DNA from: Candidatus Collierbacteria bacterium GW2011_GWB2_45_17 | Lineage (GTDB): Bacteria > Patescibacteriota > Microgenomatia > UBA1400 > MFAQ01 | Reading direction: 5' to 3' | Length of the DNA: 64,000 nucleotides | NCBI GenBank assembly: GCA_001001485.1 | Contig: LCKO01000001.1 | Span: forward strand, 9,381 to 73,380 | Made by a program: the position numbers and the translations under genes | Notes under the pieces: generated by a model | What the model was told of the DNA's origin: nothing | Seen by the model: the letters and a program-made list of their open reading frames with translations, nothing else | Databases searched by the model: none | Shown here: in pieces, positions 2,119 through 60,057 of the stretch | Position numbering within the stretch: position 1 is the first letter of the stretch | How the letters are laid out: the number at the start of each line of letters is the position of its first letter

Positions 2119-2124
2119 TCCATC

Positions 2125-2257
2125 GTCATTGCGAGGAGCAGGGCGACGTGGCTCTCCTGGATACCCCTTGCGGGTAAATCTCACTCCACCAACAAGTCAT
2201 GCCGGACCAGATCCGGCATCCAGGCATTTCTGGATTCTGAATCAAGTTCAGAATGAC
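2125..2257. repeat. Cluster of GTCAT-initiated hairpin repeats (MITE-like): GTCATTGCGAGG..., ...ATCTCACTCCAC, GTCATGCCGGACCAGATCCGGCATCCAG and a TTCTGAATCAAGTTCAGAA hairpin
   Basis: Inverted-repeat stems are seen directly; the same motif families recur at about 10 other loci in the window. Confidence 0.6.
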
Positions 2258-2258
2258 A

Positions 2259-6116: not shown

Positions 6117-6122
6117 ATATTC

Positions 6123-6194
6123 GTCATTCCGAGTTTCGTACCCGAACCGAAGCAATCTCACTCTCTGTCATTCCGGGCTTGACCCGGAATCCAG
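6123..6194. repeat. Two adjacent hairpin repeats: GTCATTCCGAG...GAAGCAATCTCACTC, then GTCATTCCGGGCTTGACCCGGAATCCAG
   Basis: Inverted repeats TTCCGGG/CCCGGAA; the same families occur elsewhere in the window. Confidence 0.6.
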
Positions 6195-7498: not shown

Positions 7499-7564
7499 AA
7501 AAATTTGCCTTCGACCACACCCAGCGCCGCCCCCCCAGTCATCGGCATCTTCATCGAGGTCTAG
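7477..7564 (+). repeat. Second, longer copy of the rnj 3' end (about 88% identical to 5318-5405), frameshifted; its first codons supply the stop of the Bro-N gene
   Basis: AAAGCCAGCTAGAAAAATTTGCCTTCGACCACACCCAGCGCCGCC... compared with the rnj terminus. Confidence 0.6.
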
Positions 7565-16051: not shown

Positions 16052-16052
16052 C

Positions 16053-16805: not shown

Positions 16806-16812
16806 CGTACTC

Positions 16813-16925
16813 GTCATTGCGAGCGTAGCGCGGCAATCTAACTCTAATTATAGTGTCATCCCGGACCTGGATCCGGGATCCATCCCCTCCGTCATTGCGA
16901 GTCTCGTATTCGAGCCGAAGCAATC
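16813..16925. repeat. Three adjacent hairpin repeats: GTCATTGCGAGCGTAGCGCGGCAATC, GTCATCCCGGACCTGGATCCGGGATCCATCCCC and GTCATTGCGAGTCTCGTATTCGAGCCGAAGCAATC
   Basis: Members of the same GTCAT repeat families seen elsewhere in the window. Confidence 0.6.
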
Positions 16926-16956
16926 TAGCATTCGCTATCATTGGCTATCGCTCGCA

Positions 16957-17543: not shown

Positions 17544-17936
17544 ATGCCCATTATTCTTTGTCTTGACCCAGGTACCTCTCACACAGGCCTCGCTATTTCT
17601 GAGGAGGGGATTCTCGCCACACCGGTCGCCACTATTTATGAAAAAGAGTTAGATCAATTGGTCACCAAATTACTGCCCTTTCTAAATCGATATCATCCGG
17701 ACAAAATCGTCATTGGAGTCCCGGAGTATGGTCCAATCGTCAAATTTGCCACAGACTTAAGTGAAAAAATTTACACCGTTTTTCCCAAAGAAATAGTCTT
17801 TTTTCGTGAAGATCTCAGTTCTCACACCGCCAGGAATGTCATGAAAGAGCAAGGGAAAACTCTGACTAAACGAAAGAAAGAAGAGCACCAAACCGCCGCC
17901 GCCCTCATCCTCCAAGACTACCTCGATTCTTTCTAG
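17544..17936 (+). CDS. ruvX: Holliday junction resolvase-like YqgF/RuvX (pre-16S rRNA nuclease)
   Basis: ILCLDPGTSHTGLAISEE RNase H-like start. Confidence 0.7.
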   Translation: MPIILCLDPGTSHTGLAISEEGILATPVATIYEKELDQLVTKLLPFLNRYHPDKIVIGVPEYGPIVKFATDLSEKIYTVFPKEIVFFREDLSSHTARNVMKEQGKTLTKRKKEEHQTAAALILQDYLDSF

Positions 17937-19267: not shown

Positions 19268-20248
19268 ATGTTTAAGCGGCTATTTATCGCTACCACCATT
19301 TTGTCCGTTCTCGGATTTTCCTGGTATTTTCAAGCCATGCAACCGGTCACTCGGACAGCGACCTCTCTTTTGGACTTCGAAATCAAACCCGGCACTGGTA
19401 TCGACAAAATCGCCAATGATCTCAGCTCAGCTCAACTAATTAGATCCAGAATCGCTTTCAAACTCACCGTCATTCGTCTGGGTATAGCGAGCAAAATTCA
19501 AGCCGGTTATTTTAAGCTTTCTCCGAACATGGATGCTACCGAAATGGCTCAGGCTTTGCTTCACGCTTATTCTCGCCAGGTCCGTGTGACCATTCCGGAA
19601 GGCTTAAGAAGTGAAGAAATAAACTTTCTTTTTGACAAAGCCTTCAGCCAAATAAAAGAAAATAACTACAATCCATTACAATTTACTTCCCTGACCCGAG
19701 GCAAAGAGGGTCGTCTCTTTCCTGACACTTACGATTTTGCCCCGGAAGCTTCTGCTTCGGACATTGTGAAACGACTGACTAAGCAATTTGAAGAAGTCAC
19801 GGCCGATATTCCTTCGGATAAATTAAATGGCGTCACCACCCTGGCTTCATTACTGGAAAGAGAAGCGGCTTCGTCTGCCGAAATGCCCTTGATCGCCGGA
19901 GTTATCGCCAATCGTTTAAAAATCGGCATGGCTTTGCAAATAGACGCTTCGGTTCAATACGCTTTAGGATCAGCCCGCTGTAAGCAGATCAACTGCGATT
20001 GGTGGGAAAAAGACCTTACCCTTGAAGATCTCAAACTTAAATCTCCCTACAATACTTATCTCAATACCGGACTTCCGCCCACGCCAATAGCCAATCCCGG
20101 CAAAGATGCTCTCTCCGCCGCCTCCGATCCACAGGAAACTTCATCCATGTACTATCTCCATGACTTAAACGGCAAAATTCATTTCGCCGACACCTTCGCC
20201 GAGCACTCCAAAAACATCTGTACCTTCCTCAAAAAAGACTGCAACTAA
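19268..20248 (+). CDS. mltG: Endolytic murein transglycosylase MltG (YceG family)
   Basis: N-terminal TM plus YceG-like domain, YYLHDLNGKIHFADTFAEHSKN. Confidence 0.7.
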   Translation: MFKRLFIATTILSVLGFSWYFQAMQPVTRTATSLLDFEIKPGTGIDKIANDLSSAQLIRSRIAFKLTVIRLGIASKIQAGYFKLSPNMDATEMAQALLHAYSRQVRVTIPEGLRSEEINFLFDKAFSQIKENNYNPLQFTSLTRGKEGRLFPDTYDFAPEASASDIVKRLTKQFEEVTADIPSDKLNGVTTLASLLEREAASSAEMPLIAGVIANRLKIGMALQIDASVQYALGSARCKQINCDWWEKDLTLEDLKLKSPYNTYLNTGLPPTPIANPGKDALSAASDPQETSSMYYLHDLNGKIHFADTFAEHSKNICTFLKKDCN

Positions 20249-20252
20249 TCTC

Positions 20253-20287
20253 GTCATCCCGACCAAAGTGGAGGGATCTCACTCCAC
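20253..20287. repeat. Hairpin repeat GTCATCCCGACCAAAGTGGAGGGATCTCACTCCAC, followed by a bidirectional terminator-like hairpin CCGGCAACCTTTCGGCCACCGG
   Basis: Same ...GGGATCTCACTCCAC family as the copies at 41852, 46334 and 46988. Confidence 0.5.
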
Positions 20288-40418: not shown

Positions 40419-41174
40419 ATGAAAACCATACCTAAAAAACTTATCAAGCTAAATCCTAAATCTTCGGGACGCAATTCTTCTGGTAAAATAACCGTTCGAC
40501 ATCAGGGTGGTCGTGAAAAGCGTTTTCTCCGTCATATCGACTGGAAGAGGAACCTTGCACTCACCGCTCGAGTTGAATCTATCCAGTACGATCCCAATCG
40601 CACTTCCGATATCGCCCTTTTAGTTTATGTGAGCGGCATCAAAGACTACATTCTGGCCCCCCAAGGCCTCAAAGTCGGAGATACCGTTATTTCTTCCGAA
40701 GCCGCCGAAATTAAGGTTGGTAATTGTTTACCCCTAAAGAACATCCCCATTGGGATCGAGATTCACAATCTTGAAATTGTCCCCGGCAAAGGCGCTCAAA
40801 TGGTCAGAAGTGCCGGAAACACCGCTACCGTCCAAAGCAAGGAAGGCAATGTTGTCGTGGTCAAACTTCCTTCCGGGGAAATTCGTCAATTCGATGGCAC
40901 TTGTAAAGCCACCATTGGTGCTCTCAGCAATCCTCATCACAAAGAAGAAATCCTTGGTAAAGCTGGCCGCAAACGCCACATGGGTGTCAGGCCGACAGTC
41001 AGAGGTGTGGCTCAGGATCCCCGCTCTCATCCTCACGGTGGTGGAGAGGGACGTAGTGGCATCGGTATGAAGTCTCCTAAATCTCCTTGGGGCAAGAGAA
41101 CTTTAGGAAAACGCACTCGAGATCGCAAAAAATATAGCAATAAACTGATTATTAAACGTCGTTACGTCAAGTAA
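40419..41174 (+). CDS. rplB: 50S ribosomal protein L2
   Basis: L2 signature (GRNSSGKITVRHQGG, HPHGGGEG). Confidence 0.9.
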   Translation: MKTIPKKLIKLNPKSSGRNSSGKITVRHQGGREKRFLRHIDWKRNLALTARVESIQYDPNRTSDIALLVYVSGIKDYILAPQGLKVGDTVISSEAAEIKVGNCLPLKNIPIGIEIHNLEIVPGKGAQMVRSAGNTATVQSKEGNVVVVKLPSGEIRQFDGTCKATIGALSNPHHKEEILGKAGRKRHMGVRPTVRGVAQDPRSHPHGGGEGRSGIGMKSPKSPWGKRTLGKRTRDRKKYSNKLIIKRRYVK

Positions 41175-41191
41175 AATTAAATTAAATAAAC

Positions 41192-41476
41192 ATGTCTAGA
41201 AGTTCAATCAAAGGTCCATTCGTAGACGAAAAGCTCATTGTCAAAATTGAGCGACTTAAACTGGCCGGCAAGAAAGAACCCATCAAAACTTGGGCCAGAT
41301 CGTCTCAGATACCTCCGGAATTTGTCGGCTACACTTTCGCTGTTCACAACGGCAAAATTTTTAAAGAAGTTTTCATTACCGAGGACATGGTCGGTCACCG
41401 TCTAGGTGAGTTTTCTTTAACCAGAAATTTCCGAGGACATGGTCGGATCGTCAAAAGAACTCTATCCAAAACCTAA
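41192..41476 (+). CDS. rpsS: 30S ribosomal protein S19
   Basis: S19 signature. Confidence 0.9.
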
Positions 41477-41482
41477 AGCTCT

Positions 41483-41923
41483 ATGGCCACTAAAACAATT
41501 AAACAACTTGTCATCGCCAAAGCCAGTCACGCGCTTTCTTCTCCGCGTAAAACCAATCTGGTGCTTAAGGCCATTGTCGGTAGACCGGCACTTTTGGCAA
41601 TTAAACAATTGGCCGTCATTCCCAAGAGGGCCGGAGAACCTGTTGTTCAATTAATTAAACAGGCCATCGGTAATGCCGTTTCCAGATTTCAAGCCTCACC
41701 AGACAGTTTAATCATCGACTCCGCTTTCGCTACCAAAGGTCGTGTTCTAAAACGCGCTCACATCGGCGGTCGAGGTAAAACCAAGCCTTACGAACGCACC
41801 ACTTCACACTTGACTCTATATCTACGAGTTCTGACCCCCAAAGCCATCCCTGTCATCCCGAGCGCAGTCGAGGGATCTCACTCCACCAAGAAAGTCGTTA
41901 AATCTACCAAAAAAACAAAATAA
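41483..41923 (+). CDS. rplV: 50S ribosomal protein L22 with an extended C-terminus that contains an in-frame hairpin repeat
   Basis: L22 core; the tail ...PVIPSAVEGSHSTKKVVKSTKKTK is encoded by GTCATCCCGAGCGCAGTCGAGGGATCTCACTCCAC. Confidence 0.85.
   Translation: MATKTIKQLVIAKASHALSSPRKTNLVLKAIVGRPALLAIKQLAVIPKRAGEPVVQLIKQAIGNAVSRFQASPDSLIIDSAFATKGRVLKRAHIGGRGKTKPYERTTSHLTLYLRVLTPKAIPVIPSAVEGSHSTKKVVKSTKKTK
41852..41886. repeat. Hairpin repeat GTCATCCCGAGCGCAGTCGAGGGATCTCACTCCAC embedded in-frame in the rplV 3' end
   Basis: Same family as the copies at 20253, 46334 and 46988. Confidence 0.6.
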
Positions 41924-41925
41924 TC

Positions 41926-42579
41926 ATGGGAAAAAAAGTTAACCCAATCGCTTTTAGAACCGGCTACATCTTTCCCACCAAGTCGATCTGGTTTGCCAAT
42001 TTTAGAAACTACGCCAAGTATGTTTTGGAAGACAACAAGATCAGACGCTTTTTGGAAGCCAAGTTAAAGCTCGCCGGTATCACCAGTATCGAGATCAAAC
42101 GCTCGATCAATTCGGTTGATATTTTTATGAACGTTTCCCGCCCCGGCGTCGTTATTGGTCGTGGCGGTTCTTCTCTGGAAATTCTCAAAAAAGACATCGA
42201 AAAGCTCCTTAAAATTAATCCCAAGGCCAAAAACGCCGTCAAGATTAATCTTCACCCCCTAGAGATTAAAAATCCCGACATGAACTCAGCCATCATTGCC
42301 GATCGTCTAGCCAACCAATTGGAACACCGTTATCCTTTCCGTCGTGCCGCCAACCAAGCCATCGAAAAGGTTATGGCTTCCGGAGCCAAAGGTGTCAAAC
42401 TCGTTTTTGCCGGTCGTATCGATGGCGCCGAAATTGCCCGTGTCGAAAAGTTCAAACAAGGTCGAATTCCTACTCAAACCTTACGTGCCAACATTGATTA
42501 CATAGAGAAAAAAGCTCTTACCCGTTCCGGGTATGTTGGCATCAAAGTTTGGATTTATTCAGGCGACATCATCAGCTAA
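41926..42579 (+). CDS. rpsC: 30S ribosomal protein S3
   Basis: S3 signature. Confidence 0.9.
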   Translation: MGKKVNPIAFRTGYIFPTKSIWFANFRNYAKYVLEDNKIRRFLEAKLKLAGITSIEIKRSINSVDIFMNVSRPGVVIGRGGSSLEILKKDIEKLLKINPKAKNAVKINLHPLEIKNPDMNSAIIADRLANQLEHRYPFRRAANQAIEKVMASGAKGVKLVFAGRIDGAEIARVEKFKQGRIPTQTLRANIDYIEKKALTRSGYVGIKVWIYSGDIIS

Positions 42580-42615
42580 GTCCTATCAACCAACAACTAA
42601 TAACAAAGAACTAAC

Positions 42616-43029
42616 ATGTTACAACCAGGGAGACGCAAATATCGAAAAGAGTTTAGAGGTAGTATGGGAGGCGTTGCCACTCGTACCCATGAACTCTCTT
42701 ACGGAGACTTCGGGATCAAAGCCTTAGAATGTGGTTGGCTATCGGCCAACGAAATTGAATCTGCTCGCCGCACCATCACTCACCACACTAAACGGGTCGG
42801 TAAATTTTTCCTTCGTGTTTTTCCTCACAAACCTATCGGTCACAAGACTCCTGGTGCTCGTATGGGTTCCGGCAAGTCGGATGTGTCAGGCTACGTTGCC
42901 GTCGTCAAGCCCGGGCAGATACTGATGGAGCTTTCCGGAGTAACCAGAGAAATTGCCACCGAAGCCATCCGTCTCGCCGGCCACAAACTCTCCGTTAAAA
43001 CCAAATTAATTGAAAAAGAAAATGCCTAA
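42616..43029 (+). CDS. rplP: 50S ribosomal protein L16
   Basis: L16 signature. Confidence 0.9.
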   Translation: MLQPGRRKYRKEFRGSMGGVATRTHELSYGDFGIKALECGWLSANEIESARRTITHHTKRVGKFFLRVFPHKPIGHKTPGARMGSGKSDVSGYVAVVKPGQILMELSGVTREIATEAIRLAGHKLSVKTKLIEKENA

Positions 43030-43201
43030 AACAAAGACCGTTACCTCCACCACGACCCTTGAAGAGCTCAAAATTAAGTTAGCGAGCATCAAGCTTAATA
43101 TCCGTGCCGGTATCGAAAAAAATACCAACGCTCACAAGAAGACCAAAGTCCAAATTGCTCAGCTCTTGACTAAGAACAATCAACCAATAACTAATAACTA
43201 A
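43010..43201 (+). CDS. rpmC: 50S ribosomal protein L29; its C-terminal NQPITNN is encoded by an AACTAA-type tract
   Basis: L29 signature. Confidence 0.8.
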   Translation: MKKKMPKTKTVTSTTTLEELKIKLASIKLNIRAGIEKNTNAHKKTKVQIAQLLTKNNQPITNN

Positions 43202-43202
43202 A

Positions 43203-43430
43203 ATGAAACACCTACTCGGCACTGTTAAAAGCGACAAAAATATTAAAACCGCCATCGTTGATGTCGTCAGATTCAAAGTTCACCCCAAATACCTGAAACG
43301 TATCAAGGTCAATAAGTCTTACGCTGTCCAAAACGACCTCGGCGCCAAAGTCGGGAATCGTGTCCGTCTCGAAGAAACTCGTCCCATTAGTAAAACCAAA
43401 CGTTGGAAAATCTCTAAAATTATAAAATAA
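43203..43430 (+). CDS. rpsQ: 30S ribosomal protein S17
   Basis: S17 signature. Confidence 0.9.
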
Positions 43431-43431
43431 T

Positions 43432-43806
43432 ATGATTCAACTAAGATCCGTCCTTAACATTGCCGACAACTCCGGAGCCAAACAGATCAAGGTCATTTTG
43501 GTTCATGGAGGCTCTCACCGTCGCTTCGGTCGCATTGGTGACGTGGTTACCGCCGCTGTCGAAGGTGCCTCTGCCGATGGCACAGTCAAAGACAAGCAGG
43601 TGGTCAAAGCCGTGCTCGTCCGCACTCGCAAGGAAACCCGCCGGCCGGACGGTACCTACGTTCGCTTTGACGACAACGCCGCTGTTATTATTGACTCAAT
43701 TGCGAGTAAGCTCCCTTTGGGAACTCGTATCTTTGGCCCCATCGCCCGTGAGGTAAAAGATGCCGGTTTCTCCAAGATTGCCTCACTCGCCCCCGAAGTC
43801 GTCTAA
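43432..43806 (+). CDS. rplN: 50S ribosomal protein L14
   Basis: L14 signature. Confidence 0.9.
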
Positions 43807-43811
43807 CAATC

Positions 43812-43849
43812 GTCATTGCGAGTCTCGTATTCGAGCCGAAGCAATCCAG
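43812..43849. repeat. Hairpin repeat GTCATTGCGAGTCTCGTATTCGAGCCGAAGCAATCCAG between rplN and rplX
   Basis: Same family as the 16813 and 46920 elements. Confidence 0.6.
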
Positions 43850-43871
43850 AAAAAATAAAACTATAAAACAT

Positions 43872-44195
43872 ATGTTCAAATTCAAAATCAACGATACTGT
43901 TCAGATCACCGCCGGCAAAGACAAGGGGCGCAGTGGTAAAGTCCTAAAAGTCCTGCCAGTCGACCAAAAAGTCTTGGTGGAGGGGATTAATCTTTACAAA
44001 AAACACATCAAGCCCAAAGGTAACGAAGCCGGTACCATCCTGACACTTCCTCGTGCTCTATCCACTGCTTCCGTTGCTCTCATCTGCCCGAGCTGTGGCA
44101 AGCCCACCAGGGTCGGCTTTGATGCCTCCCAAACCCCCAAAGTCAGAATTTGTCACAAGTGTCGTCAGATAATTACCAGTGAAATCAAAAAATGA
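43872..44195 (+). CDS. rplX: 50S ribosomal protein L24 with a C-terminal C4 zinc-ribbon extension
   Basis: KOW domain, then CPSCGKPT...CHKCRQ. Confidence 0.85.
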   Translation: MFKFKINDTVQITAGKDKGRSGKVLKVLPVDQKVLVEGINLYKKHIKPKGNEAGTILTLPRALSTASVALICPSCGKPTRVGFDASQTPKVRICHKCRQIITSEIKK

Positions 44196-44740
44196 TTCAA
44201 AATTTAAAAGAAAAATATTTAAAAGAAATTCGTCCGGTCCTCCAAAAAGAGTTGGGTCTTTCCTCTGTTGAGGCCGTTCCCAAGATCACCAAGATCACGG
44301 TCAACACCAGCTCCAAGGACTTCAAAACCGACAAAGACTTGCTGGCCAAAACCAAGGACTGGATGAGCAAGATCACCGGCCAAGCTCCATTGGAGACCAA
44401 GTCGAGATCCAGTATCGCCGCCTTCAATTTGCGCGAAGGTGAGGTAGTTGGTTTAAAAACTACACTTCGAGGCACCAGAATGTATGACTTCCTGGAAAAG
44501 CTCATCTCCATCGTTCTCCCGCGTCTAAAAGATTTTCAAGGTATCTCCACTAAAGCCTTCGACAACAAAGGCAACTACACCATTGGTTTTCCCGAACAAA
44601 TAGTGTTTCCCGAGGTCGAATATGATAAAATCGGGAGGATTCAAGGGCTAGAAGTGACCGTCTCCACCAGTGCGAAAGACTCCAAAACCTCTTTGATGTT
44701 CTTAAGAGTCTTAGGCATGCCTTTTACCAAGGAGTCATAA
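44192..44740 (+). CDS. rplE: 50S ribosomal protein L5
   Basis: L5 signature. Confidence 0.9.
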
Positions 44741-44750
44741 AATATTTAAG

Positions 44751-44936
44751 ATGGCTAAAAAAAGCAAAATTGCTAAAACACTTAAACTTGCCGGTCACAG
44801 CACCCGTGATCACCGTCGTTGCCAGCTCTGCGGCCGACCTCGTGGTGTCATCCGTATCTTCGGTCTTTGCCGTCTCTGCTTCAGAGAAATGGCTCACCGA
44901 GGAGAGTTACCCGGTGTTTTCAAAATGTCAAAATAA
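44751..44936 (+). CDS. rpsN: 30S ribosomal protein S14, zinc-binding type Z
   Basis: 61 aa; CQLCGRP...CRLCFRE. Confidence 0.9.
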
Positions 44937-44937
44937 T

Positions 44938-45327
44938 ATGGATACTACCGCCGACTTTTTAACTATCATCCGCAATGGCTACCTCGCCAAAAAAGACACA
45001 GTGGTTGTCGAATTTTCCAAAGCCAGAGAGGAACTCACTAAGATTCTTAAGACAGAGGCTTTTATCGTCGATTACTCAGTCGAAAAAGCTAAACCCGTTA
45101 ACAAACTCATCATTAATCTTCGTTATTTCGACAAGGGCCTGCCTGCCGTTACCGGTATCAAGAAAATCACCAAACCTAGTGTCCGAATTTACTCTGGGTA
45201 CAATCAAATTCCACGAACTCTCTCCGGCGCCGGCACTACCATTCTGACTACCTCGGCTGGTTATATGACCGGCAAGACCGCTCGTGAAAAACATCTTGGC
45301 GGCGAAGTTATTTGTCAAATTTGGTAA
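44938..45327 (+). CDS. rpsH: 30S ribosomal protein S8
   Basis: S8 signature; start at MDTTADFLTIIRNG (the ORF-track ORF 44770-45327 has an over-extended 5' end). Confidence 0.85.
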   Translation: MDTTADFLTIIRNGYLAKKDTVVVEFSKAREELTKILKTEAFIVDYSVEKAKPVNKLIINLRYFDKGLPAVTGIKKITKPSVRIYSGYNQIPRTLSGAGTTILTTSAGYMTGKTAREKHLGGEVICQIW

Positions 45328-45330
45328 CAA

Positions 45331-45399
45331 ATACCAACTAAACTAACCATTAACCAATAACTAATAACCATTAACCAATAACTAAGCACTAATAACTAA
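45331..45399. repeat. AACTAA-rich low-complexity tract with two direct repeats of ACCATTAACCAATAACTAA
   Basis: Similar AACTAA(T/G)AAC tracts at 42581-42615, 43180-43202, 56971-57005 and 59385-59426. Confidence 0.45.
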
Positions 45400-45400
45400 C

Positions 45401-45952
45401 ATGAGCCGCATTGGACGAAAACCACTATATCTTCCCGAAACTGTCAAGCTTGAAACTTACGAGACCTCGTTGAAGTTCACCGGCCCGAAGGGTACTCTGG
45501 AATCAGTCGTTCCTAAAGGTATCAAGGTCGAAATCAAAGGTAGTGTTATAAACTTTACTAGAGACAACAACATACCGGCCACCCGTGCCCTACACGGCCT
45601 AGCTCGCCGATTAGCCCAGAACTGCGTTACTGGCGTCACCGACGGTTTTTCAAAAGACCTTCTGTTGGTCGGAACCGGTTATCGTGTTTCTCCTCACGCC
45701 GAAGGTCTTTCCTTCTCGGTCGGTTACTCTCATCCGGTTATTTTCAAAAAGGTTGAAGGTGTTACCATTACCACCGAAGGTCAAGATAAAATCAAGGTTA
45801 CCGGCATCGACAAACAACTGGTTGGCCAAGTCGCCGCCAATATCCGCGAGATTAGAAAACCCGAGCCTTACAAAGGCAAGGGGATTCGCTATGTCGACGA
45901 AGTCATCCTCAAGAAGCAAGGTAAAACAGCTACCAAAACCGCCGCCGTTTAA
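45401..45952 (+). CDS. rplF: 50S ribosomal protein L6
   Basis: L6 signature. Confidence 0.9.
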   Translation: MSRIGRKPLYLPETVKLETYETSLKFTGPKGTLESVVPKGIKVEIKGSVINFTRDNNIPATRALHGLARRLAQNCVTGVTDGFSKDLLLVGTGYRVSPHAEGLSFSVGYSHPVIFKKVEGVTITTEGQDKIKVTGIDKQLVGQVAANIREIRKPEPYKGKGIRYVDEVILKKQGKTATKTAAV

Positions 45953-45960
45953 AACCAAAA

Positions 45961-46332
45961 ATGAAAAAGCTAAACGATAAACAATCCAGAGCCGGCCGCA
46001 TCCGATCCAAATTGCTCGCCCGCACCACTCGTCCTCGTCTGACGGTCAGTCGTAGCAATCAAAATATTTTTGCCCAAATTATCGATCAAACCGGTAAGGT
46101 TCTGGCTGCCTTTGGTTCAGCGTCATTGCGAGGAGGTCGCCTCAGACGACCGACGAAGCAATCTATAAAAATGACCAAAACGGAAATGGCTACCGAAGTT
46201 GGTAAGAAACTTGGCGAAATAGCCAAAAACAAAAAAATTTCCACTGTCGTTTTTGATCGTGGTTCTTACCGTTTTCATGGCCGTGTCAAAACCCTCGCCG
46301 AAGCCGTCCGCGCCACCGGCATCAAATTCTAA
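45961..46332 (+). CDS. rplR: 50S ribosomal protein L18 carrying an in-frame hairpin-repeat insertion
   Basis: L18 core; the inserted segment SLRGGRLRRPTKQS is encoded by GTCATTGCGAGGAGGTCGCCTCAGACGACCGACGAAGCAATC. Confidence 0.85.
   Translation: MKKLNDKQSRAGRIRSKLLARTTRPRLTVSRSNQNIFAQIIDQTGKVLAAFGSASLRGGRLRRPTKQSIKMTKTEMATEVGKKLGEIAKNKKISTVVFDRGSYRFHGRVKTLAEAVRATGIKF
46122..46163. repeat. Hairpin repeat (GTCATTGCGAG...GAAGCAATC family) inside the rplR coding sequence, in frame
   Basis: Sequence identity to the intergenic copies. Confidence 0.6.
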
Positions 46333-46333
46333 C

Positions 46334-46368
46334 GTCATTCCGACCGAAGCGGAGGAATCTCACTCCAC
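46334..46368. repeat. Hairpin repeat GTCATTCCGACCGAAGCGGAGGAATCTCACTCCAC
   Basis: Same family as the 20253, 41852 and 46988 copies. Confidence 0.6.
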
Positions 46369-46396
46369 TAAATAAACAAATATAAAATAAAACAAA

Positions 46397-46915
46397 ATGG
46401 CCTACACAGGAAATACAAACAACAGCAATCGAGGCGGCGGTCGTCCGGCTCCAGAAGGCTTCGAACAAGTCCTTCAGATCCGTCGCGTCAGCAAGAAGAC
46501 TCAGGGTGGTACCAATGTCTCCTTCTCTGCGTTAGTGGTGACCGGGGACAAAAAAGGTAAAGTTGGTCTAGGTTTAGCCAAGGCTCCCAACGTCGCTGAT
46601 GCTATCAAAAAAGCCATTCGTCTCAGTAACCGAGACTTGGTTCAAGTTCCCCTGGTCGATGGTACTATCCCCTACGAAACCAACTCCAAGTACGGCGCCG
46701 CCAAAGTTCTTTTCCGCCCGGCTCCCAAGGGTACCGGTCTTATCGCCGGTTCATCCGTCCGCGCCGTGGTTGAAGCCGCCGGTATTACCGACATCGTTTG
46801 CAAGGTTTTGGGTACCAACAACAAGACCAGCAACGCCAGGGCTACTTTCAAAGCTCTCAAACAGATCGAAACTCTAGGTAAAAAATACCAATTGCTCAAA
46901 GCCCTGAGGGCGTAG
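46397..46915 (+). CDS. rpsE: 30S ribosomal protein S5
   Basis: S5 signature. Confidence 0.9.
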   Translation: MAYTGNTNNSNRGGGRPAPEGFEQVLQIRRVSKKTQGGTNVSFSALVVTGDKKGKVGLGLAKAPNVADAIKKAIRLSNRDLVQVPLVDGTIPYETNSKYGAAKVLFRPAPKGTGLIAGSSVRAVVEAAGITDIVCKVLGTNNKTSNARATFKALKQIETLGKKYQLLKALRA

Positions 46916-46919
46916 CCCC

Positions 46920-47022
46920 GTCATTGCGAGTTTCGGTACTCCGAACCGTGGCAATCCAGAACAATAAATATAATATACAAATTAATTGTCATCCCGAGCG
47001 AAGTCGAGGGATCTCACTCCAC
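46920..47022. repeat. Two hairpin repeats (GTCATTGCGAGTTTCGGTACTCCGAACCGTGGCAATCCAG and GTCATCCCGAGCGAAGTCGAGGGATCTCACTCCAC) occupying the position where rpmD (L30) would normally lie
   Basis: No L30-like ORF lies between rpsE and rplO. Confidence 0.6.
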
Positions 47023-47030
47023 AAAACAAT

Positions 47031-47483
47031 ATGAAAATGCTTTTATCCAATCTTCCCAAAATAATCGAAACTCCCAAAAAGCGCCTTGGACGAGGCTTTG
47101 GCTCTGGTGTCGGCGGTCACACCGTCGGACGTGGTCAAAAAGGTCAAAAAACCCGCGGTATTATCCCTCTTTGGTTTGAGGGCGGTCAGCTTCCCTTGGT
47201 CCGCCGGACTCCTTTCATCAAGGGTAAGCACCGTTTCCAGGTTATCAAGCCTCAGCCTATCACCGTCAACTTCGATCGCCTCGACAAGTTTGCCGAAAAC
47301 TCGGTCGTAGACGCCCTTTTCCTTGCCACTGCCCTCAAGGTGAGCGAGAAAGAAGCCAAGCGCGGCTTCAAGATTATCGCTACCGGTAAGCTCACCAAAC
47401 CCTTCCAAATCGCCGTCCCGGCCTCCGCGGGGGCCATCAAGGCTATTGAGAAGGCCGGCGGCAAGTTCCTCGCCTCCAAATAG
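47031..47483 (+). CDS. rplO: 50S ribosomal protein L15
   Basis: L15 signature; start at MKMLLSNL (the ORF-track 5' extension translates the repeat). Confidence 0.85.
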   Translation: MKMLLSNLPKIIETPKKRLGRGFGSGVGGHTVGRGQKGQKTRGIIPLWFEGGQLPLVRRTPFIKGKHRFQVIKPQPITVNFDRLDKFAENSVVDALFLATALKVSEKEAKRGFKIIATGKLTKPFQIAVPASAGAIKAIEKAGGKFLASK

Positions 47484-47566
47484 CGTCACCCCACTCTTGA
47501 CTTTAGACCTATAATTTGATATAGTTTCAGTATAGGTTCACACTAAAACTAACGTTGGAGGTAAAG

Positions 47567-47905
47567 ATGTACACTGTTGATGATTTTGCAAAGGATATGC
47601 ATGCGGATGTATGGGCGATTCGAGGCAGGCTCTTGGAAATAACTTCAAAATGTCTCCAATGGGGTGAATTAAGCGTCAAACACTTAAAGCTTAAGGATGC
47701 CAAAGTAGTTGGGAACGTGCTCTTTCTTCGCTTTGTTGCTAGCAACGATTATTTGGCGATTGATCCAGTTGAGAAAAGAATCTACCAGGCCAATTACGAT
47801 CTCAAGGAAGTTCCTGGAAAGCACGAGATAGATCTATCTATCATCAATAATATTTCCAAAGAGCTTAAAACTCGGTATTCAAAGGCTAGCCCTGTCAGCT
47901 TTTAA
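47567..47905 (+). CDS. Hypothetical protein A of the rplO|secY island (SD GGAGG)
   Basis: 113 aa from the Met at 47567 (the ORF-track ORF starts at 47555); SD then ATG; followed by a strong terminator. Confidence 0.45.
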   Translation: MYTVDDFAKDMHADVWAIRGRLLEITSKCLQWGELSVKHLKLKDAKVVGNVLFLRFVASNDYLAIDPVEKRIYQANYDLKEVPGKHEIDLSIINNISKELKTRYSKASPVSF

Positions 47906-47916
47906 ATATATGCAGA

Positions 47917-47946
47917 CAAAACCATTCCCCCCGGGAGTGGTTTTTT
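47917..47946 (+). terminator. Intrinsic terminator AAAACCATTCCCCCCGGGAGTGGTTTTTTG followed by a -10-like CTATAAT
   Basis: Long GC stem plus T-tract. Confidence 0.6.
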
Positions 47947-47988
47947 GCTATAATATCCCAGAACATTAAAATTCCAGGAGGTATACCC

Positions 47989-48417
47989 GTGTTTAACATT
48001 CGTTTTCAGAATCTACCCAAGCTTGTCTTTAACCCGCGCCTTTTCGCTTTTGAACCTGCCCATGTGGACACGCTCCGCCAAGTTATCGGCACACTCTTAA
48101 GATGCCCGCCGGAACTACCCCAACTCTTAATTGAAAGATCGGAGTGCTTTATTTTGGAAGACAAAAGCCTCGTAGCGGCCCCCGTACGGATTATCGTCGA
48201 GTGGTACTCTGAACGCCCTAGTTCCGACACTATTTTTGGCCTGGCTCTGGCCTTTTACAACTTTCTAAAAGCTTATGGCTTTGAAGCAGGTCTGACAGTC
48301 ATCTTTTCCGGTATTTCCGAAGGTGACGCCTTCATTGAGAAAGATGGTCGTTTGATTTCCGCTCCCCGTCTCCCCACTCCACATTTTAACTATCGTGGCT
48401 TTCAAGGCAAACGCTAA
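47989..48417 (+). CDS. Hypothetical protein B (GTG start, SD GGAGG)
   Basis: 142 aa ORF, no recognizable family. Confidence 0.45.
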   Translation: MFNIRFQNLPKLVFNPRLFAFEPAHVDTLRQVIGTLLRCPPELPQLLIERSECFILEDKSLVAAPVRIIVEWYSERPSSDTIFGLALAFYNFLKAYGFEAGLTVIFSGISEGDAFIEKDGRLISAPRLPTPHFNYRGFQGKR

Positions 48418-48426
48418 AGGAGATTT

Positions 48427-48801
48427 ATGAAATCTTTGCTCACCTTAAACAATCTCGGCTACGCCAGAGACGTTTCCGGGGGACCAGAATGTAATTGCGA
48501 CCTCGGGGTATTCATTTTCGCCTCCGAACAAAGCCTCAAAATACGCACCTATTTCTATCTGAAGAATCAGTCGGAAAAACAATTGGTCATCGGTAAGTTG
48601 GTGGATGGTGTCAATGATAGTGCGGATCTAGACCATGGCAAGCTAACCTTCAGGTTCGAAAGTAACGGACACGTTGAACTCTCCTGGGAAAACCAAGAAG
48701 GCCATCAAACTGCCACCTTCAATGAAATTGCTTTGGTCCAGCTTATGGAAGTCGAATGGGTCCGAACCCTCGTCAAAAACCGCACCGCCAGCTATCTCTA
48801 A
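48427..48801 (+). CDS. Hypothetical protein C (SD AGGAG)
   Basis: 124 aa ORF, no recognizable family. Confidence 0.45.
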   Translation: MKSLLTLNNLGYARDVSGGPECNCDLGVFIFASEQSLKIRTYFYLKNQSEKQLVIGKLVDGVNDSADLDHGKLTFRFESNGHVELSWENQEGHQTATFNEIALVQLMEVEWVRTLVKNRTASYL

Positions 48802-48807
48802 TCTTTA

Positions 48808-48833
48808 CGCCACCCTTCACTGGGTGGTTTTTG
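48808..48833 (+). terminator. Intrinsic terminator GCCACCCTTCACTGGGTGGTTTTTG followed by a -10-like TTACAAT
   Basis: GC stem plus T-tract. Confidence 0.55.
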
Positions 48834-48872
48834 TTACAATACTCGGGAACATTCAAATTTCAAGGAGGTCAA

Positions 48873-49469
48873 GTGGATAAAAATTCAATCCTTCATCAGA
48901 TCAACATCGATTTTTTTATACTTTCAGCCACTGTCGTTCAAGATCTCAAAATGATCGCTCTTTGCCGATCCCCTTACTACAAGCACCCTATTGGTTGTCC
49001 AAACTGGGATCACAAAGACGGTTGTCCGCCCCATACCAAACGTTTTTTATCAGTCTATGAGCCGACAGTTTACATCGCCATTGCTCGCTTGGATTTTGGT
49101 AAGTATCTGAAACTTAAAGAAAAAATTCATCCGGGGTGGACAGAGAAAGCTTTAAAAAACCCTCGTCACTGGCAAGGTCACCTAAGAGCCGCTCTCAGAA
49201 ATTTTCTAACTCCGGACAAAATCCACACCGGCTTCGAAATAGTTAAAAATGCGGAAGCCATGGGCATCAATTTGTTCGAAACCTGTGCCAATGCCGGCTT
49301 CGTTCTCGAAAGAGATCCGAAAAATTATGTTTGCCACCTTAATCTCTTGGCTAAACCCACCACCCCTCACCGGGTGGTTTTTTGTTTCGTGGCACCGTGT
49401 CACAGTGTTACCGTGCCACACACCTTATCATTCTCGACCGACTATAATTTAACAAATGGATCTTATTAG
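48873..49469 (+). CDS. Hypothetical Cys-rich protein D (GTG start after AGGAGG); its 3' end reads through a terminator hairpin
   Basis: CRSPYYKHPIGCPNWDHKDGCPP Cys/Pro motif. The upstream part of the ORF-track ORF 48756-49469 was rejected because it spans the preceding terminator and promoter. Confidence 0.4.
   Translation: MDKNSILHQINIDFFILSATVVQDLKMIALCRSPYYKHPIGCPNWDHKDGCPPHTKRFLSVYEPTVYIAIARLDFGKYLKLKEKIHPGWTEKALKNPRHWQGHLRAALRNFLTPDKIHTGFEIVKNAEAMGINLFETCANAGFVLERDPKNYVCHLNLLAKPTTPHRVVFCFVAPCHSVTVPHTLSFSTDYNLTNGSY
49353..49384 (+). terminator. Intrinsic terminator AAACCCACCACCCCTCACCGGGTGGTTTTTTG; followed by a second hairpin GTGGCACCG...CGTGCCAC and a -10-like TATAAT about 9 nt before the ATG at 49456
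   Basis: GC stem plus T-tract. Confidence 0.55.
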
Positions 49470-50343
49470 AAAAATTATTATGGATCTCTGCAAATTCTCT
49501 CCTCGTCAAGGAGAGAACGAGGTCAGAACTGCCCAGTATTTGGAGAACTTTTTGACTCAGAGAAAAATCAACTTCACTTCTCAGTATTTCAAAACCGAAA
49601 TCCCCAATGTTATTCACGCGGAACTCTATCTAGATGGCCAAAGGATACCATGTCTCGGAAAATCATTCGTCGGTGGCATGATTACTTCCAAGGATCAAAT
49701 CGATTTTAGTCCGTATTCAGACTATATCGAAACTATCACTTTTCGGCCCATTCCCACAGTTGCCATTTCCAGGACAAACGCTAAATTCCTAGAGAAAGCC
49801 AACCACGTCCGCGGGGAAGTTGTAGTTGAGAAATATTTATTCCAATCAAGAAACATATTAGTTGGCGATACCATTAATCCCAAAAAAATTATTTTTGCTC
49901 ACTACGATGGTCTTGGTGGGGGAGCAGTGGACAACGCTGGCAGTGTCGCCATTTGTCTCGAACTCTTAATTGAAAACCCTGAACTGTTATCCGAGAACTT
50001 ATTTGTTTTTGCTGGCAACGAAGAACTCAGTTACGACTCTGGAGACTACTGGGGCAAGGGCTACCGTGAATTTGAAAATGAATATCTCACCCTACTAAAA
50101 TCCGCTCTGGAGATTGTGGTTGTCGATGGCGTCGGGGTCAGCCCTCCTGTTATTGTTTCCGAAGACCGAGAAGATGTCTTTCCAATCAATCATTTCGACG
50201 AGTTCTCATCAAAAATTACCTGGCTTTCCAGCATCCAATCAGAAGTCCTCAAATGCTATCACTGTTTGGAAGATACACTTGACAAGTTAAATTTCGGCCA
50301 TTTCGAAGAAACCAGAAAAATGTTAGAAAAGATGTTAGGATAA
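49456..50343 (+). CDS. M28-family zinc peptidase-like protein
   Basis: IIFAHYDGLGGGAVDNAGSVAICLELL resembles the M28/M20 metal-binding segment; N-terminal region SPRQGENEVRTAQYLENFL as in aminopeptidases. Confidence 0.5.
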   Translation: MDLIRKIIMDLCKFSPRQGENEVRTAQYLENFLTQRKINFTSQYFKTEIPNVIHAELYLDGQRIPCLGKSFVGGMITSKDQIDFSPYSDYIETITFRPIPTVAISRTNAKFLEKANHVRGEVVVEKYLFQSRNILVGDTINPKKIIFAHYDGLGGGAVDNAGSVAICLELLIENPELLSENLFVFAGNEELSYDSGDYWGKGYREFENEYLTLLKSALEIVVVDGVGVSPPVIVSEDREDVFPINHFDEFSSKITWLSSIQSEVLKCYHCLEDTLDKLNFGHFEETRKMLEKMLG

Positions 50344-50346
50344 ATT

Positions 50347-50544
50347 ATGACCAATAAATTTAAAAACCTGAAGCCGTATATAGTCAGGACATCAGAAAAT
50401 AATGCATATACTATCCCGAAACTGGTAAGGGGGGAAAAACGCGATAAAATGATTTCCGAAATGGTTGAACTAATCAAAGAAAATAAGAAAATTATTGACG
50501 ATCTCAAATCATCCTCGAAACCAGATGGGTATCTTTTTGGATGA
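50347..50544 (+). CDS. AbrB/MazE-type (swapped-hairpin) antitoxin-like protein
   Basis: 65 aa; IVRTSENNAYTIPKLVRGE resembles SpoVT/AbrB DNA-binding antitoxins; immediately precedes and overlaps a PIN gene. Confidence 0.45.
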   Translation: MTNKFKNLKPYIVRTSENNAYTIPKLVRGEKRDKMISEMVELIKENKKIIDDLKSSSKPDGYLFG

Positions 50545-51094
50545 AAATTTCAAAGAATCAGTAAGAGGTAAATATTGCCTGTTGGATAATGATTTTCTTG
50601 GTGCCTTATTCAATGACAATTCTCTATTCCTTGCGATGAAGGACCTTTTAAATGACTATCCCTTTGTATACGATAATCTGACAAGTTTTGAATTCTTAAG
50701 AGATATCTATGTTCCTAGTCAGATAGTACTCAGGGAAAAATTTTTATCGAAGGATTTATTGTTTCCTCTCTCTGATCATCAAGAAATATATACAAAGACT
50801 CAAACCAATGCTCTCATCCTTTCCAAGATTTATGCCCAAAATAATTCAAAGTTAAATCAGAAGGGTTCAGCAAGTTTTACCGATATTTTTTTAGCTTCTA
50901 GATTAATGTCTTTGGGGAGTAAATACTTACTTATTACCGGAAATAAAAAAGACTTTCCCAATTATATCTTTGATACAAAAGGCATCATTACAAACGAGGA
51001 GGCAAGCGGAGCTCTAAGAAGCTACTCACTTCTATCATTTGATCCGGATAAATTTGATAAGTGTTTCAAGGAATTAGGCGGGGTGGGCAATTAA
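50525..51094 (+). CDS. PIN-domain nuclease-like toxin (VapC-like)
   Basis: CLLDNDFLGALFND near the N-terminus and LLITGNKKDF near the C-terminus fit the PIN acidic motifs. The ORF-track ORF starts at 50495; Met at 50525 chosen. Confidence 0.45.
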   Translation: MGIFLDENFKESVRGKYCLLDNDFLGALFNDNSLFLAMKDLLNDYPFVYDNLTSFEFLRDIYVPSQIVLREKFLSKDLLFPLSDHQEIYTKTQTNALILSKIYAQNNSKLNQKGSASFTDIFLASRLMSLGSKYLLITGNKKDFPNYIFDTKGIITNEEASGALRSYSLLSFDPDKFDKCFKELGGVGN

Positions 51095-54630: not shown

Positions 54631-55008
54631 GTGTCCAAAAACAAAGTTCTTGTCCTTCATTCCGCAGACAGTTCTGCTCGAGCCGAAACTTTCAAAAAAT
54701 GGCTGGAAAACCTGGATTTTAGTGTTTCAACCATGAACGACTTAAACAAATCAGAATCCGAGTCCGCCTACCGTCTTTTACAAAAAGCGATCGAAGGAAA
54801 CGATCGTGTTGTTATCTTGGTTTCCACCGGGATTTTTAACAGTTGTGTTCTGAGGTTTGGTATAGGCTACGCCCTCGGTGCCGGCAAGAAGATAGTCTCA
54901 GTCGTCAAGGACACCGATAGGGTTATTATGCCCTCTTGGTACGCCAATCTATTTGTACCGTTAAATAGCTACGACGAGGGCGAAATCTGGTCCAAACTGA
55001 AAAAATAA
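54631..55008 (+). CDS. Small TIR-like / SLOG (nucleoside 2-deoxyribosyltransferase-like) fold protein
   Basis: KVLVLHSADSS (TIR beta-A-like), then DRVVILVSTGIFNSCVLRFGIGYALGAGKKIV; SD AGGAGG with GTG start; own terminator. Confidence 0.4.
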   Translation: MSKNKVLVLHSADSSARAETFKKWLENLDFSVSTMNDLNKSESESAYRLLQKAIEGNDRVVILVSTGIFNSCVLRFGIGYALGAGKKIVSVVKDTDRVIMPSWYANLFVPLNSYDEGEIWSKLKK

Positions 55009-56556: not shown

Positions 56557-56970
56557 ATGCCAGAAGAAAAACCCATCATCAAACCGGTCTTAAAAAACAA
56601 AAAAGCCTCCGCCATTCATTTTAAAAGCGGTCAGGGTAAAATGTATGTCAAGTCTACCTTCAATACAACCTATGTTACTTTTACCGACACCACGGGCAAC
56701 ACTGTTTGTTGGAGTAGCGCCGGCACTTGTGGTTTCAAAGGGGCCAAGAGATCCACTCCGTTTGCGGCTACCACCATTATTGAAGAAGGTCTTCGAAAAG
56801 CCAAAACTCTAGGCCTAACTAACATCGATGTCTATCTCAAAGGCCCCGGACCAGGGAAAGACGCCGCTCTTCGTGTTCTAAAGACCTCCGGTGCCGAAAT
56901 CAATATGCTGGCCGACACCACTCCCATTCCCCACAACGGCTGTCGCCCCAGAAAACATCGCCGAGTCTAA
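56557..56970 (+). CDS. rpsK: 30S ribosomal protein S11
   Basis: S11 signature. Confidence 0.9.
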   Translation: MPEEKPIIKPVLKNKKASAIHFKSGQGKMYVKSTFNTTYVTFTDTTGNTVCWSSAGTCGFKGAKRSTPFAATTIIEEGLRKAKTLGLTNIDVYLKGPGPGKDAALRVLKTSGAEINMLADTTPIPHNGCRPRKHRRV

Positions 56971-57005
56971 ACCAAGAACTAATAACCAATAACTAAAAAT
57001 AAAAC

Positions 57006-58977: not shown

Positions 58978-59423
58978 ACACTACTACCCTCAAATTCTCT
59001 GACGTGAAACACAATTGGCACTTAGTTGATATAGATGGTCAAATTCTCGGCCGGGTAGCCGTTCAAATTGCTAAACTTCTCACCGGCAAAGGTAAGGCTC
59101 TGACCGGCGATCATCTCGATAACGGTGATTTTGTCGTCGCCATTAATGCAGCCAAGTTCAAAGTCACCGGCAAAAAGATGGCCGATAAAATGTATTATTC
59201 TCACTCCGGCTTCCCAGGTGGTTTCAAAGAGATCACTCTGGCCCAGCTCGCTGAAAAGGACGCTCGAAGGGTCATCGAAAAGGCCGTTAAGGGAATGCTC
59301 CCGAAGAACAAACTCCAGCAAACTCGCCTCAGGCGCCTTAAACTTTATCTCGACGACAAACATCCCTATGCTGTCGAACTAGGACTCAAAACTAAGAACC
59401 AAGAACTAACAACTAAGAACTAA
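58974..59423 (+). CDS. rplM: 50S ribosomal protein L13; its C-terminal KTKNQELTTKN is encoded by an AACTAAGAAC tract
   Basis: L13 signature. Confidence 0.85.
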   Translation: MNTTTLKFSDVKHNWHLVDIDGQILGRVAVQIAKLLTGKGKALTGDHLDNGDFVVAINAAKFKVTGKKMADKMYYSHSGFPGGFKEITLAQLAEKDARRVIEKAVKGMLPKNKLQQTRLRRLKLYLDDKHPYAVELGLKTKNQELTTKN

Positions 59424-59426
59424 TAT

Positions 59427-59903
59427 ATGGCTCAAAAACTATCCAAAAAATCCAAAATCGCTATCAAACCGGTAAAAACAGTTCCCGTTAAAAAAGGTAC
59501 TCTCACCATGCCCAAAGAATTCTTTTCCGCCGTCGGTCGTCGCAAAACCGCCATCGCTCGTGTTCGTCTCTGGTCCGGTAAGCAAGAATTAACTGTCAAC
59601 GGCAAACCCATCTCCGAGTATTTCAAAGGAGAGTCTTTCAAAAGAATCTATCAATCACCATTCTTGGTGACCGACACTCTTAGTCAATTCACCGGTAGTA
59701 TCAAAGTAGTGGGCAGCGGGCTTATGGGTCAAGTAGGTGCTTTGGTACACGGTTTGTCCCGCACTCTGGTCAAGATTGACGAAGCCCACAAATTACCTCT
59801 CCGGGAAAAAGGTTTCATCACTCGAGATCCCCGTATGAAAGAGACTCGAAAAGCCGGTCAGGGTGGCCGAGCTCGCGCCAAGAAGCAATCCCCCAAACGT
59901 TAA
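59427..59903 (+). CDS. rpsI: 30S ribosomal protein S9
   Basis: S9 signature, C-terminal ...KKQSPKR. Confidence 0.9.
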   Translation: MAQKLSKKSKIAIKPVKTVPVKKGTLTMPKEFFSAVGRRKTAIARVRLWSGKQELTVNGKPISEYFKGESFKRIYQSPFLVTDTLSQFTGSIKVVGSGLMGQVGALVHGLSRTLVKIDEAHKLPLREKGFITRDPRMKETRKAGQGGRARAKKQSPKR

Positions 59904-59911
59904 ATTATCCT

Positions 59912-60020
59912 GTAGGGGCTGGGTTCACCCTGCCCGTACGTGTGTCATTGCGAATCTCGTACTCGAGCTGTGGCAATCTCACCCCACTGTCATCCCGGAC
60001 TTGATCCGGGATCCATCCCC
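59912..60020. repeat. Hairpin repeat cluster: GTAGGGGC...GCCCGTAC, GTCATTGCGAATCTCGTACTCGAGCTGTGGCAATC and GTCATCCCGGACTTGATCCGGGATCCATCCCC
   Basis: Same families as the 16813 cluster. Confidence 0.6.
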
Positions 60021-60057
60021 TGTTACAATACCCCATAACCCATTTAGGAGGCGCACC

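Follow-up and report, generated by a model that had tools for sequence, protein, structure and literature searches.

Two essential ribosomal protein genes in a 64-kb stretch of bacterial DNA (the window, meaning all 64,000 nucleotides analysed) contain, in frame, short palindromes that also recur between genes of the same stretch. What are these repeats, and how do rplV (uL22) and rplR (uL18) come to carry them as coding sequence? The window has a G+C content of 44.7%, and its + strand carries the ribosomal-protein operons str, S10, spc and alpha; its uL18 and uL22 have their nearest named relatives in Candidatus Collierbacteria (Microgenomates, candidate phyla radiation, CPR). An earlier note on this DNA had described the palindromes as 'MITE-like' (MITE, miniature inverted-repeat transposable element). 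Our analysis indicates that they most likely belong to the already known superfamily of CGTC-tagged repetitive extragenic palindromes (REPs) and are not MITEs. We consider it probable that the two intragenic hairpins are non-autonomous members of that superfamily, translated and tolerated as passengers in a disordered loop and a tail. The features at issue, with sub-types A and B described below, are these:

41483..41923, + strand: rplV (uL22), an open reading frame (ORF) of 146 aa with a variable Lys-rich C-terminal tail; homologues have PF00237.
41851..41886, + strand: type B element in frame in the rplV tail, with a TGTC tag, an ATCCC..GGGAT stem and a CTCACTCCAC tail; it encodes VIPSAVEGSHST.
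45961..46332, + strand: rplR (uL18), an ORF of 123 aa.
46121..46173, + strand: type A element in frame in rplR, including a 3' extension; the element proper ends at 46163.

The window contains 17 GTCAT-headed hairpin repeats of 29–45 nt, 16 on the + strand and one on the – strand. Fifteen are intergenic and two intragenic (rplV and rplR). Elements are present at all nine intergenic positions given in the earlier note, with six more at 2196 (+), 2257 (–), 6167, 16855, 16891 and 59989, and the three sub-types it distinguished are borne out: type A at 2125, 6123, 16813, 16891, 43812, 46122, 46920 and 59944; type B at 20253, 41852, 46334 and 46988; and type C at 2196, 2257 (minus strand), 6167, 16855 and 59989. 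The two copies that it placed in coding sequence are both in frame and stop-free, within ORFs 41483–41923 and 45961–46332. The pattern GTCATYSCGRS matches 12 times, on the + strand only, against 0.38 matches expected from shuffles. The complement of the 5-nt stem start follows 29 of the window's 134 GTCAT sites, compared with a baseline of 8.6% (p = 3e-6), and the excess of such sites equals the element count of 17. Searches of the window with nhmmer models of types A, B and C found no further convincing copies.

The 5' tag is CGTC in nine copies, TGTC in seven and AGTC in one; since C or T stands at this first position in 16 of the 17, the head can be written C/TGTC. The stem starts with AT in all 17. 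Type C (GTCATCCCGGA..TCCGGGATCCA) has an 8-bp stem, a loop of 5–6 nt and a CCA tail, with fold energies of –6.4 to –13 kcal/mol (–12 to –13 for GC-rich stems). Its hairpin is constrained: across eight copies from the window and relatives the stem is 100% paired, with compensatory double changes at five of the eight pairs, a count reached in 0 of 500 shuffles; AU and UA are fixed at alignment columns 5/26 and 6/25. Type A (GTCATTGCGAG, an inner hairpin, then GAAGCAATC) consists of an outer stem of 5 bp (ATTGC/GCAAT), an internal loop rich in purines (GAG/GAA) and an inner hairpin whose arms vary among copies yet remain self-complementary (TCTCG/CGAGC, TTTCGG/CCGAAC, GGTCG/CGACC). Type B (GTCATCCCGAG..GGGATCTCACTCCAC) has a 5-bp stem and a 12-nt loop and folds like shuffled sequence. 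The tail is CCA in all type C copies and in the type A copies at 43812 and 46920; elsewhere in types A and B the end is CTA or CTCACTCCAC, the latter in many copies. The suggestion that the elements be folded as RNA has a divided answer. Type C hairpins and the type A copy in rplR fold, the latter at –14.3 kcal/mol (z = –1.66) with the family fold kept; type B, including the copy in rplV (–6.9 kcal/mol), gives z about 0.

Known RNA classes were also considered. Rfam returned no match at gathering score in the window and 14 further loci, and chance-level matches alone at E up to 10 over 41700–47100. None of the nine terminator-like sites in 41000–47600, whose number is itself at chance level, overlaps an element; the sequence 3' of the elements is A-rich with no U tract, and the elements do not score as intrinsic terminators. 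We also ruled out, on reading, a hammerhead-like core (GUC .. GAG-hairpin-GAA), as neither a separate stem I nor a CUGANGA box is present.

CGTC-tagged REPs are multi-copy elements with an unpaired CGTC or TGTC head (variant CCTC), a stem starting with AT, stems of 8–9 bp, loops of 4–5 nt and a CCA tail; they are found in several phyla, mostly near ORF 3' ends and mostly as inverted dimers, with some copies in frame within genes and no dedicated transposase (Di Nocera et al., 2013, BMC Genomics 14:522). The window elements share the C/TGTC head, the AT..AT stem start, the multi-copy occurrence near ORF 3' ends and the in-frame copies. Type C agrees with the published structure throughout. The head, the AT start and, in part, the tail are also seen in types A and B, to which both intragenic copies belong. 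Their stems are interrupted, a 5-bp outer stem enclosing either a 12-nt loop or an internal loop followed by an inner hairpin, and we regard both types as variants of the family. Other differences are the long CTCACTCCAC tail of many window copies and their arrangement: apart from one inverted dimer (2196/2257), they stand as singletons or in head-to-tail arrays. The host group, CPR/Patescibacteria, is absent from the list of Di Nocera et al. (2013), and their list of intragenic copies includes no ribosomal protein gene, the kind of gene hit here.

The motif GTCATTGCGAG-N5-35-GAAGCAATC is widespread. At least 120 genomic stretches from many phyla contain it, with hosts in Alpha-, Gamma- and Deltaproteobacteria, Chloroflexi, Bacteroidota, Cyanobacteria, Planctomycetota, Zixibacteria, Patescibacteria, Sporomusa and Helicobacter. 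Viral contigs contain it as well, again in at least 120 stretches. The proteobacterial loci are often inverted pairs. Searching the literature for the literal GTCATTGCGAG gave unrelated primer matches alone, and we found no literature linking CPR/Patescibacteria to REPs or palindromic elements.

The likeness to Rickettsia palindromic elements (RPEs), drawn in the earlier note as an analogy, goes further than that: RPE-6 is CGTC-1 and RPE-4 is CGTC-4 of the same superfamily, which also includes Neisseria dRS3 (Di Nocera et al., 2013). Here as in Rickettsia, stop-free palindromes lie in frame in housekeeping genes and are absent from orthologues. Peptides from the reverse frames of window copies (WIPDQVRDD, GFRVKPGMT, ..RND) share end motifs with the R. 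conorii REP peptides WIPWSNHGMT and LDSRFRGND; the link consists in these peptide ends and in the published placing of RPE-4 and RPE-6. Classic RPEs are about 150 bp long and add 30–50 aa, compared with about 10–17 aa here, and their host is an obligate intracellular alphaproteobacterium rather than a free-living or episymbiotic CPR bacterium.

The rplR copy consists of a CGTC tag, an ATTGC..GCAAT outer stem, a GGTCG..CGACC inner hairpin and the 3' extension CTATAAAAATG, and it matches the full family pattern (nhmmer, E = 3e-7). Insert-free uL18 homologues (57–82% identity) have 113–115 aa and read GS.SLK-.FKGTKTE at this place, whereas SLRG..TKQSIKM is confined to a small group of close relatives. 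In the window, the ancestral ..K-KFKG has become RGGRLRRPTKQSIKM, a net gain of 10 residues, and the changed stretch reaches ..SIKM (to 46173). We compared rplR DNA from relatives, seven with the insert and three without. The sequence of the empty allele is CTA TCG CTC AAA AAA TTC AAA GGC and that of the filled allele CTG TCA TTG CGA GGA GCC AAA GCG ACG AAG CAA TCT ATA AAA ATG. About 22 nt are exchanged for 45–54 nt at the junction, with zero target duplication. The event is thus a replacement with a 3' extension and not a clean 42-nt insertion. The segment in the middle of L18 is repeat-derived, as had been claimed. Its description needs correcting: S and L, the first two of the residues taken as inserted, occur in insert-free relatives as well, the stretch runs on to 46173 and older sequence was replaced. 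The extension CTATAAAAAT also lies downstream of an intergenic copy in a relative (L126:7914), so it travelled with the element. Pure insertion followed by point mutations was tried and rejected: with 21 nt removed, just 9 of 22 central positions match the empty allele.

All rplR length variants are multiples of three. The gain is 21 nt in relatives L003, L002, L126 and L127; 24 nt in L128, where the core is swapped for other small palindromes; 30 nt in the window and P0001, where a further inner hairpin is present; and 45 nt in L125, where the outer stem has decayed (ATTAC..ACAAT). These four length classes (seven sequenced alleles) all keep the frame and contain no stop codon. Alleles with and without the segment also occur on similar backgrounds, with DNA identity outside the insert of 92.5% for L002/L001 and 89.7% for L127/L129; a third such pair, P0001/P0007, is seen at the protein level. 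In an AlphaFold2 model of uL18 (mean predicted local distance difference test score, pLDDT, 80.5), the insert is placed in the loop between strand 47–52 and helix 73–90, the region of lowest confidence (mean pLDDT 51 at residues 61–70 and below 50 at 59–62). Lactococcus uL18 (5myj) aligns with a 13-residue gap at this position, and the length variation among aligned uL18 homologues falls in the same loop.

The rplV copy is 95% identical over 39 nt to the intergenic copy at 46987. Microgenomates uL22 proteins have a K/A/P/V-rich tail of highly variable length that ends ..TTKK(S/T)K. The element does lie in the L22 tail, as the earlier note had it, but it does not form the end: it is internal, and the last 11 residues, KKVVKSTKKTK, are ancestral. 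Element-derived peptides appear in a scattered subset of uL22 tails. VIPSAVEESHS, matching the window, is found in P0121, P0122 and P0124; VIARSxxDxAI in six proteins; and VIASGTKQS, VISSVVKES and VIASLVPEPKQSHS in one protein each. At the DNA level, the window and L003 have type B at the tail site. L001 and L126 share an orthologous type A copy there, of which L128 has a decayed form (ACAGC..GCAAG); L125 has another type A copy together with a further palindrome, and L127 and L129 (125-aa proteins) have nothing. The segments are lineage-specific repeat derivatives in both genes, as had been claimed and as the insert-free uL18 of 113–115 aa and the scattered uL22 peptides show; the refuting observation named in the earlier note, the same residues in relatives that lack the repeats, was looked for and not made.

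Other palindromes are found in uL22 tails too. The L125 rplV has a perfect in-frame palindrome at 5525–5560, GTCTCCCCT-GTCA-AGGGGAGAC (PVSPVKGRDG), upstream of its CGTC element. The tails of P0123, P0132 and P0182 (L020 near 4877) contain ..LPAGRQA.., from a GCCTGC..GCAGGC-type palindrome.

The intergenic copies of the window are arranged as follows:

2124..2192, + strand: type A, 5 nt past the stop of ORF 1045–2118; its 3' stem encloses a nested mini-hairpin (TACCC..GGGTA).
2195..2223, + strand: type C (ATGCCGGA/TCCGGCAT), a tail-to-tail dimer with the minus-strand copy.
2229..2258, – strand: type C, adjoining the stop of the minus-strand ORF 2259–3635.
6122..6194, + strand: type A and type C in a head-to-tail array, 6 nt past the stop of a gene-end remnant.
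16812..16928, + strand: A, C, A array, beginning 6 nt past the stop of sortase ORF 15939–16805.
20252..20287, + strand: type B, 3 nt past the stop of ORF 19268–20248.
43811..43849, + strand: type A, 4 nt past the rplN stop; relative L003 has type B at the same site.
46333..46368, + strand: type B, immediately past the rplR stop; L003 has type A here and L002 no element.
46919..47022, + strand: type A 3 nt past the rpsE stop, plus type B upstream of rplO.
59943..60016, + strand: type A and type C array, 39 nt past the rpsI stop.

In eight of nine intergenic arrays the first element lies 0–6 nt past a stop codon (5, 0, 6, 6, 3, 4, 0 and 3 nt; the ninth at 39 nt), and the one minus-strand copy adjoins the stop of a minus-strand gene. 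The operons of relatives have the same tight spacing; in L003, one further copy lies on the minus strand between two + genes. A position directly past a co-oriented stop was rejected as a universal rule: among 140 elements across phyla, co-oriented ORF ends number 38 and opposite ones 26. Because this cross-phylum bias is weak, tight spacing is a trait of the window lineage or of its short spacers.

Escherichia coli REPs, including bacterial interspersed mosaic elements (BIMEs), are likewise palindromes just past stop codons, transcribed with the upstream gene. They differ in having a GTAG tag and linked RAYT (REP-associated tyrosine transposase) genes, compared with C/TGTC heads and no Y1 domain in the window ORFs tested; CGTC elements have no known RAYT. 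In E. coli, ribosomes stall at REPs that lie within 15 nt of a stop codon (work cited in PMC12306157). The intergenic copies of the window lie inside the footprint of a terminating ribosome and so may affect termination or 3' stability. By analogy with E. coli REPs, the near-stop hairpins could act on termination or on mRNA stability.

Our preferred explanation is as follows. The elements are small non-autonomous hairpins with a C/TGTC head, an AT..AT stem, a variable inner hairpin or loop and a short CCA or CTCACTCCAC tail, and they occupy the intercistronic spacers of ribosomal operons, co-oriented with the genes. Given this co-orientation and the usual 0–6 nt spacing, they are transcribed within the polycistronic mRNA. 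Two copies appear to have landed in length-tolerant parts of essential genes, the Lys-rich tail of uL22 and the strand 3–helix loop of uL18. Read forward, the elements are open in nearly every frame (44 of 51 frames for the 17 window copies, vs 25 of 51 in reverse), and the only length changes to survive are those divisible by three, so these copies would be read through and would add about 10–14 residues to uL22 and uL18. The segments (spans SLRGGRLRRPTK and VIPSAVEGSHSTK) are probably translated, near-neutral and tolerated by the proteins. Decay in some lineages, absence in close relatives and recombination between lineages argue that they are passengers and not adaptive protein modules.

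Several points weigh against this explanation. We infer translation from frame conservation only. No mobilising enzyme is known or was found, and the rplR replacement without target duplication is predicted by no standard transposition model. For the type B copy in rplV, the hairpin has no thermodynamic significance (z about 0). Variable third-codon positions number 2 of 12 in the rplR arms but 88 of 106 in the flanks (Fisher p = 6e-6). Such conservation is unlike that of an old neutral passenger, and recent lateral spread, ectopic gene conversion or selection at the nucleotide level is needed to account for it.

Selection of this kind underlies the first alternative, in which the intragenic hairpins are kept as RNA or DNA elements (for ribosome pausing, processing or stability) and the residues are a by-product. 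Among five insert-bearing rplR alleles, the arms are 92–100% identical compared with 68–79% for the flanks (93% for the window/L003 flanks), and the stems are invariant while the loops vary. The rplR copy also retains the family fold, and the motif is conserved across phyla. However, close relatives manage without the insert, the stems have decayed in L125 and L128, and type B folds no better than shuffled sequence. Recombination and concerted evolution with genomic copies could account for the conserved arms equally well. We judge this alternative unlikely.

Between the window and L003 (rplR flanks 93% identical), the sub-types differ after rplN and after rplR, and the spacer after rpsC has an element in only one of the two. 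The L003 copy after rpsE is identical to the window copy after rplN. Non-orthologous copies are thus more alike than orthologous ones, which points to mobility or ectopic conversion. In L127, the rplR insert and L126-like flanking codons form a recombination tract on an L129-like background, which points to allelic recombination and away from a new insertion. We had also considered that one rplR codon was hit independently three or more times, a proposal weakened by this tract.

A second alternative goes further, holding that CGTC hairpins are actively exchanged at fixed sites in a CPR genome of ~0.7–0.8 Mb by a transposase-free host route, for which targeted gene conversion or template switching may be candidates. 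It draws on the same spacer or codon holding different sub-types in relatives, on the greater likeness of non-orthologous copies, and on a defined rplR replacement junction whose arms are near-invariant while synonymous sites saturate. We regard active exchange as quite unlikely, and continue to prefer tolerated passengers.

The MITE interpretation holds that the repeats are classical MITEs moved in trans by an insertion sequence (IS) transposase, with terminal inverted repeats and target-site duplications. Like bacterial MITEs (Correia, ERIC, Chunjie), the window elements are small, non-coding, non-autonomous repeats that lie inside operons, vary in presence between relatives and are sometimes fused in frame to genes. 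In contrast to MITEs, the hairpin is their sole inverted repeat, and at the rplR junction target bases were replaced, not duplicated. MITEs are usually 100 bp or longer, and at 29–45 nt the elements fall below this range. Among the 20 small window ORFs tested, none had a Y1_Tnp, IS or other transposase domain. We therefore drop the 'MITE-like' label and consider this origin very improbable.

That the extra residues are ancestral and coincidentally repeat-like, or are assembly chimeras from collapsed repeats, has nothing beyond the short repeat length in its favour and is next to impossible to reconcile with a widespread insert-free state, DNA matches to intergenic copies (rplV 95% over 39 nt; rplR E = 3e-7) and the same insertions in independent assemblies from ENA, Logan and JGI samples. 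Just as implausible are intervening sequences removed from mRNA or protein to leave normal uL18 and uL22: hairpin flanks could in principle serve as processing sites, but frame and freedom from stops are kept in all four rplR length classes, which excision would make unnecessary, there is no Rfam match, and about 10–17 aa is too short for an intein.

Several neighbouring features were noted. The mini-hairpin (TACCC-loop-GGGTA, about 22–24 nt) inside the 3' stem of the first window element (2152–2180) recurs at the same internal position in L003 (11056–11080); its presence in two different CGTC copies suggests a second tiny element inserting into the first. The gene-end remnant before the array at 6122 (6069–6115, 47 nt) has 87% identity to the 3' end of ORF 3753–5405, and a related copy lies at 7517–7563. 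Directly 3' of the triple array, 16957–17537 holds a BrnT-like toxin ORF (weak Pfam match) and a small ORF. Inside ruvX, CGTCATTGGA..TCCAATCGT (17708–17740) has a CGTC head and a 6-bp stem and may be either a chance occurrence or an old diverged copy.

A second repeat family, A-rich and stop-rich (AACTAATAAC / AACCAATAAC type), lies in spacers just before start codons:

42575–42616: second-family repeat.
43169–43210: second-family repeat.
45339–45401: second-family repeat.
56964–57005: second-family repeat.
59384–59439: second-family repeat.

It alternates with the hairpin cassette in two spacers: after rpsC, the window has the A-rich spacer and L003 a hairpin, and after rplR, L002 has the A-rich spacer and the window a hairpin. 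The spc operon is normally contiguous between rplO and secY; here about six consecutive ORFs lie between them (47555–51094). Four of these (47555–47905, 47989–48417, 48427–48801 and 50495–51094) had no Pfam match, and L003, L126, L127 and L129 have differing sets of unknown ORFs in the region, which looks like a variable island inside the operon. Between map and infA of the conserved operon lies a 125-aa ORF (54631–55008) whose match is TIR / ThsB-like but weak (E = 6e-5, which does not reach the Pfam cut-off).

These results extend a cross-phylum repeat family to the CPR. Two universally conserved ribosomal proteins appear to tolerate repeat-derived segments, for which we found no report in this family. 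The practical consequences include length polymorphism in marker proteins used for CPR phylogeny, repeats that can break assemblies, and spurious 'hypothetical proteins' with ..ARND.. or ..GMT peptides. ORFs 16738–16941 (–) and 59863–60040 (+) are mostly translated repeats (..RNDGGDGSRIQVRDD..YARNDE and ..VIANLVLELWQSHPTVIPDLIRDP..). Alleles with and without the segment on near-identical backgrounds provide a natural experiment on how hairpins enter genes, and the minimal gene content of CPR bacteria narrows the search for a mobiliser. If fixed-site exchange were true, essential ribosomal genes would have been struck repeatedly at the same codon, and the tiny CPR gene set would make the machinery that mobilises CGTC REPs identifiable.

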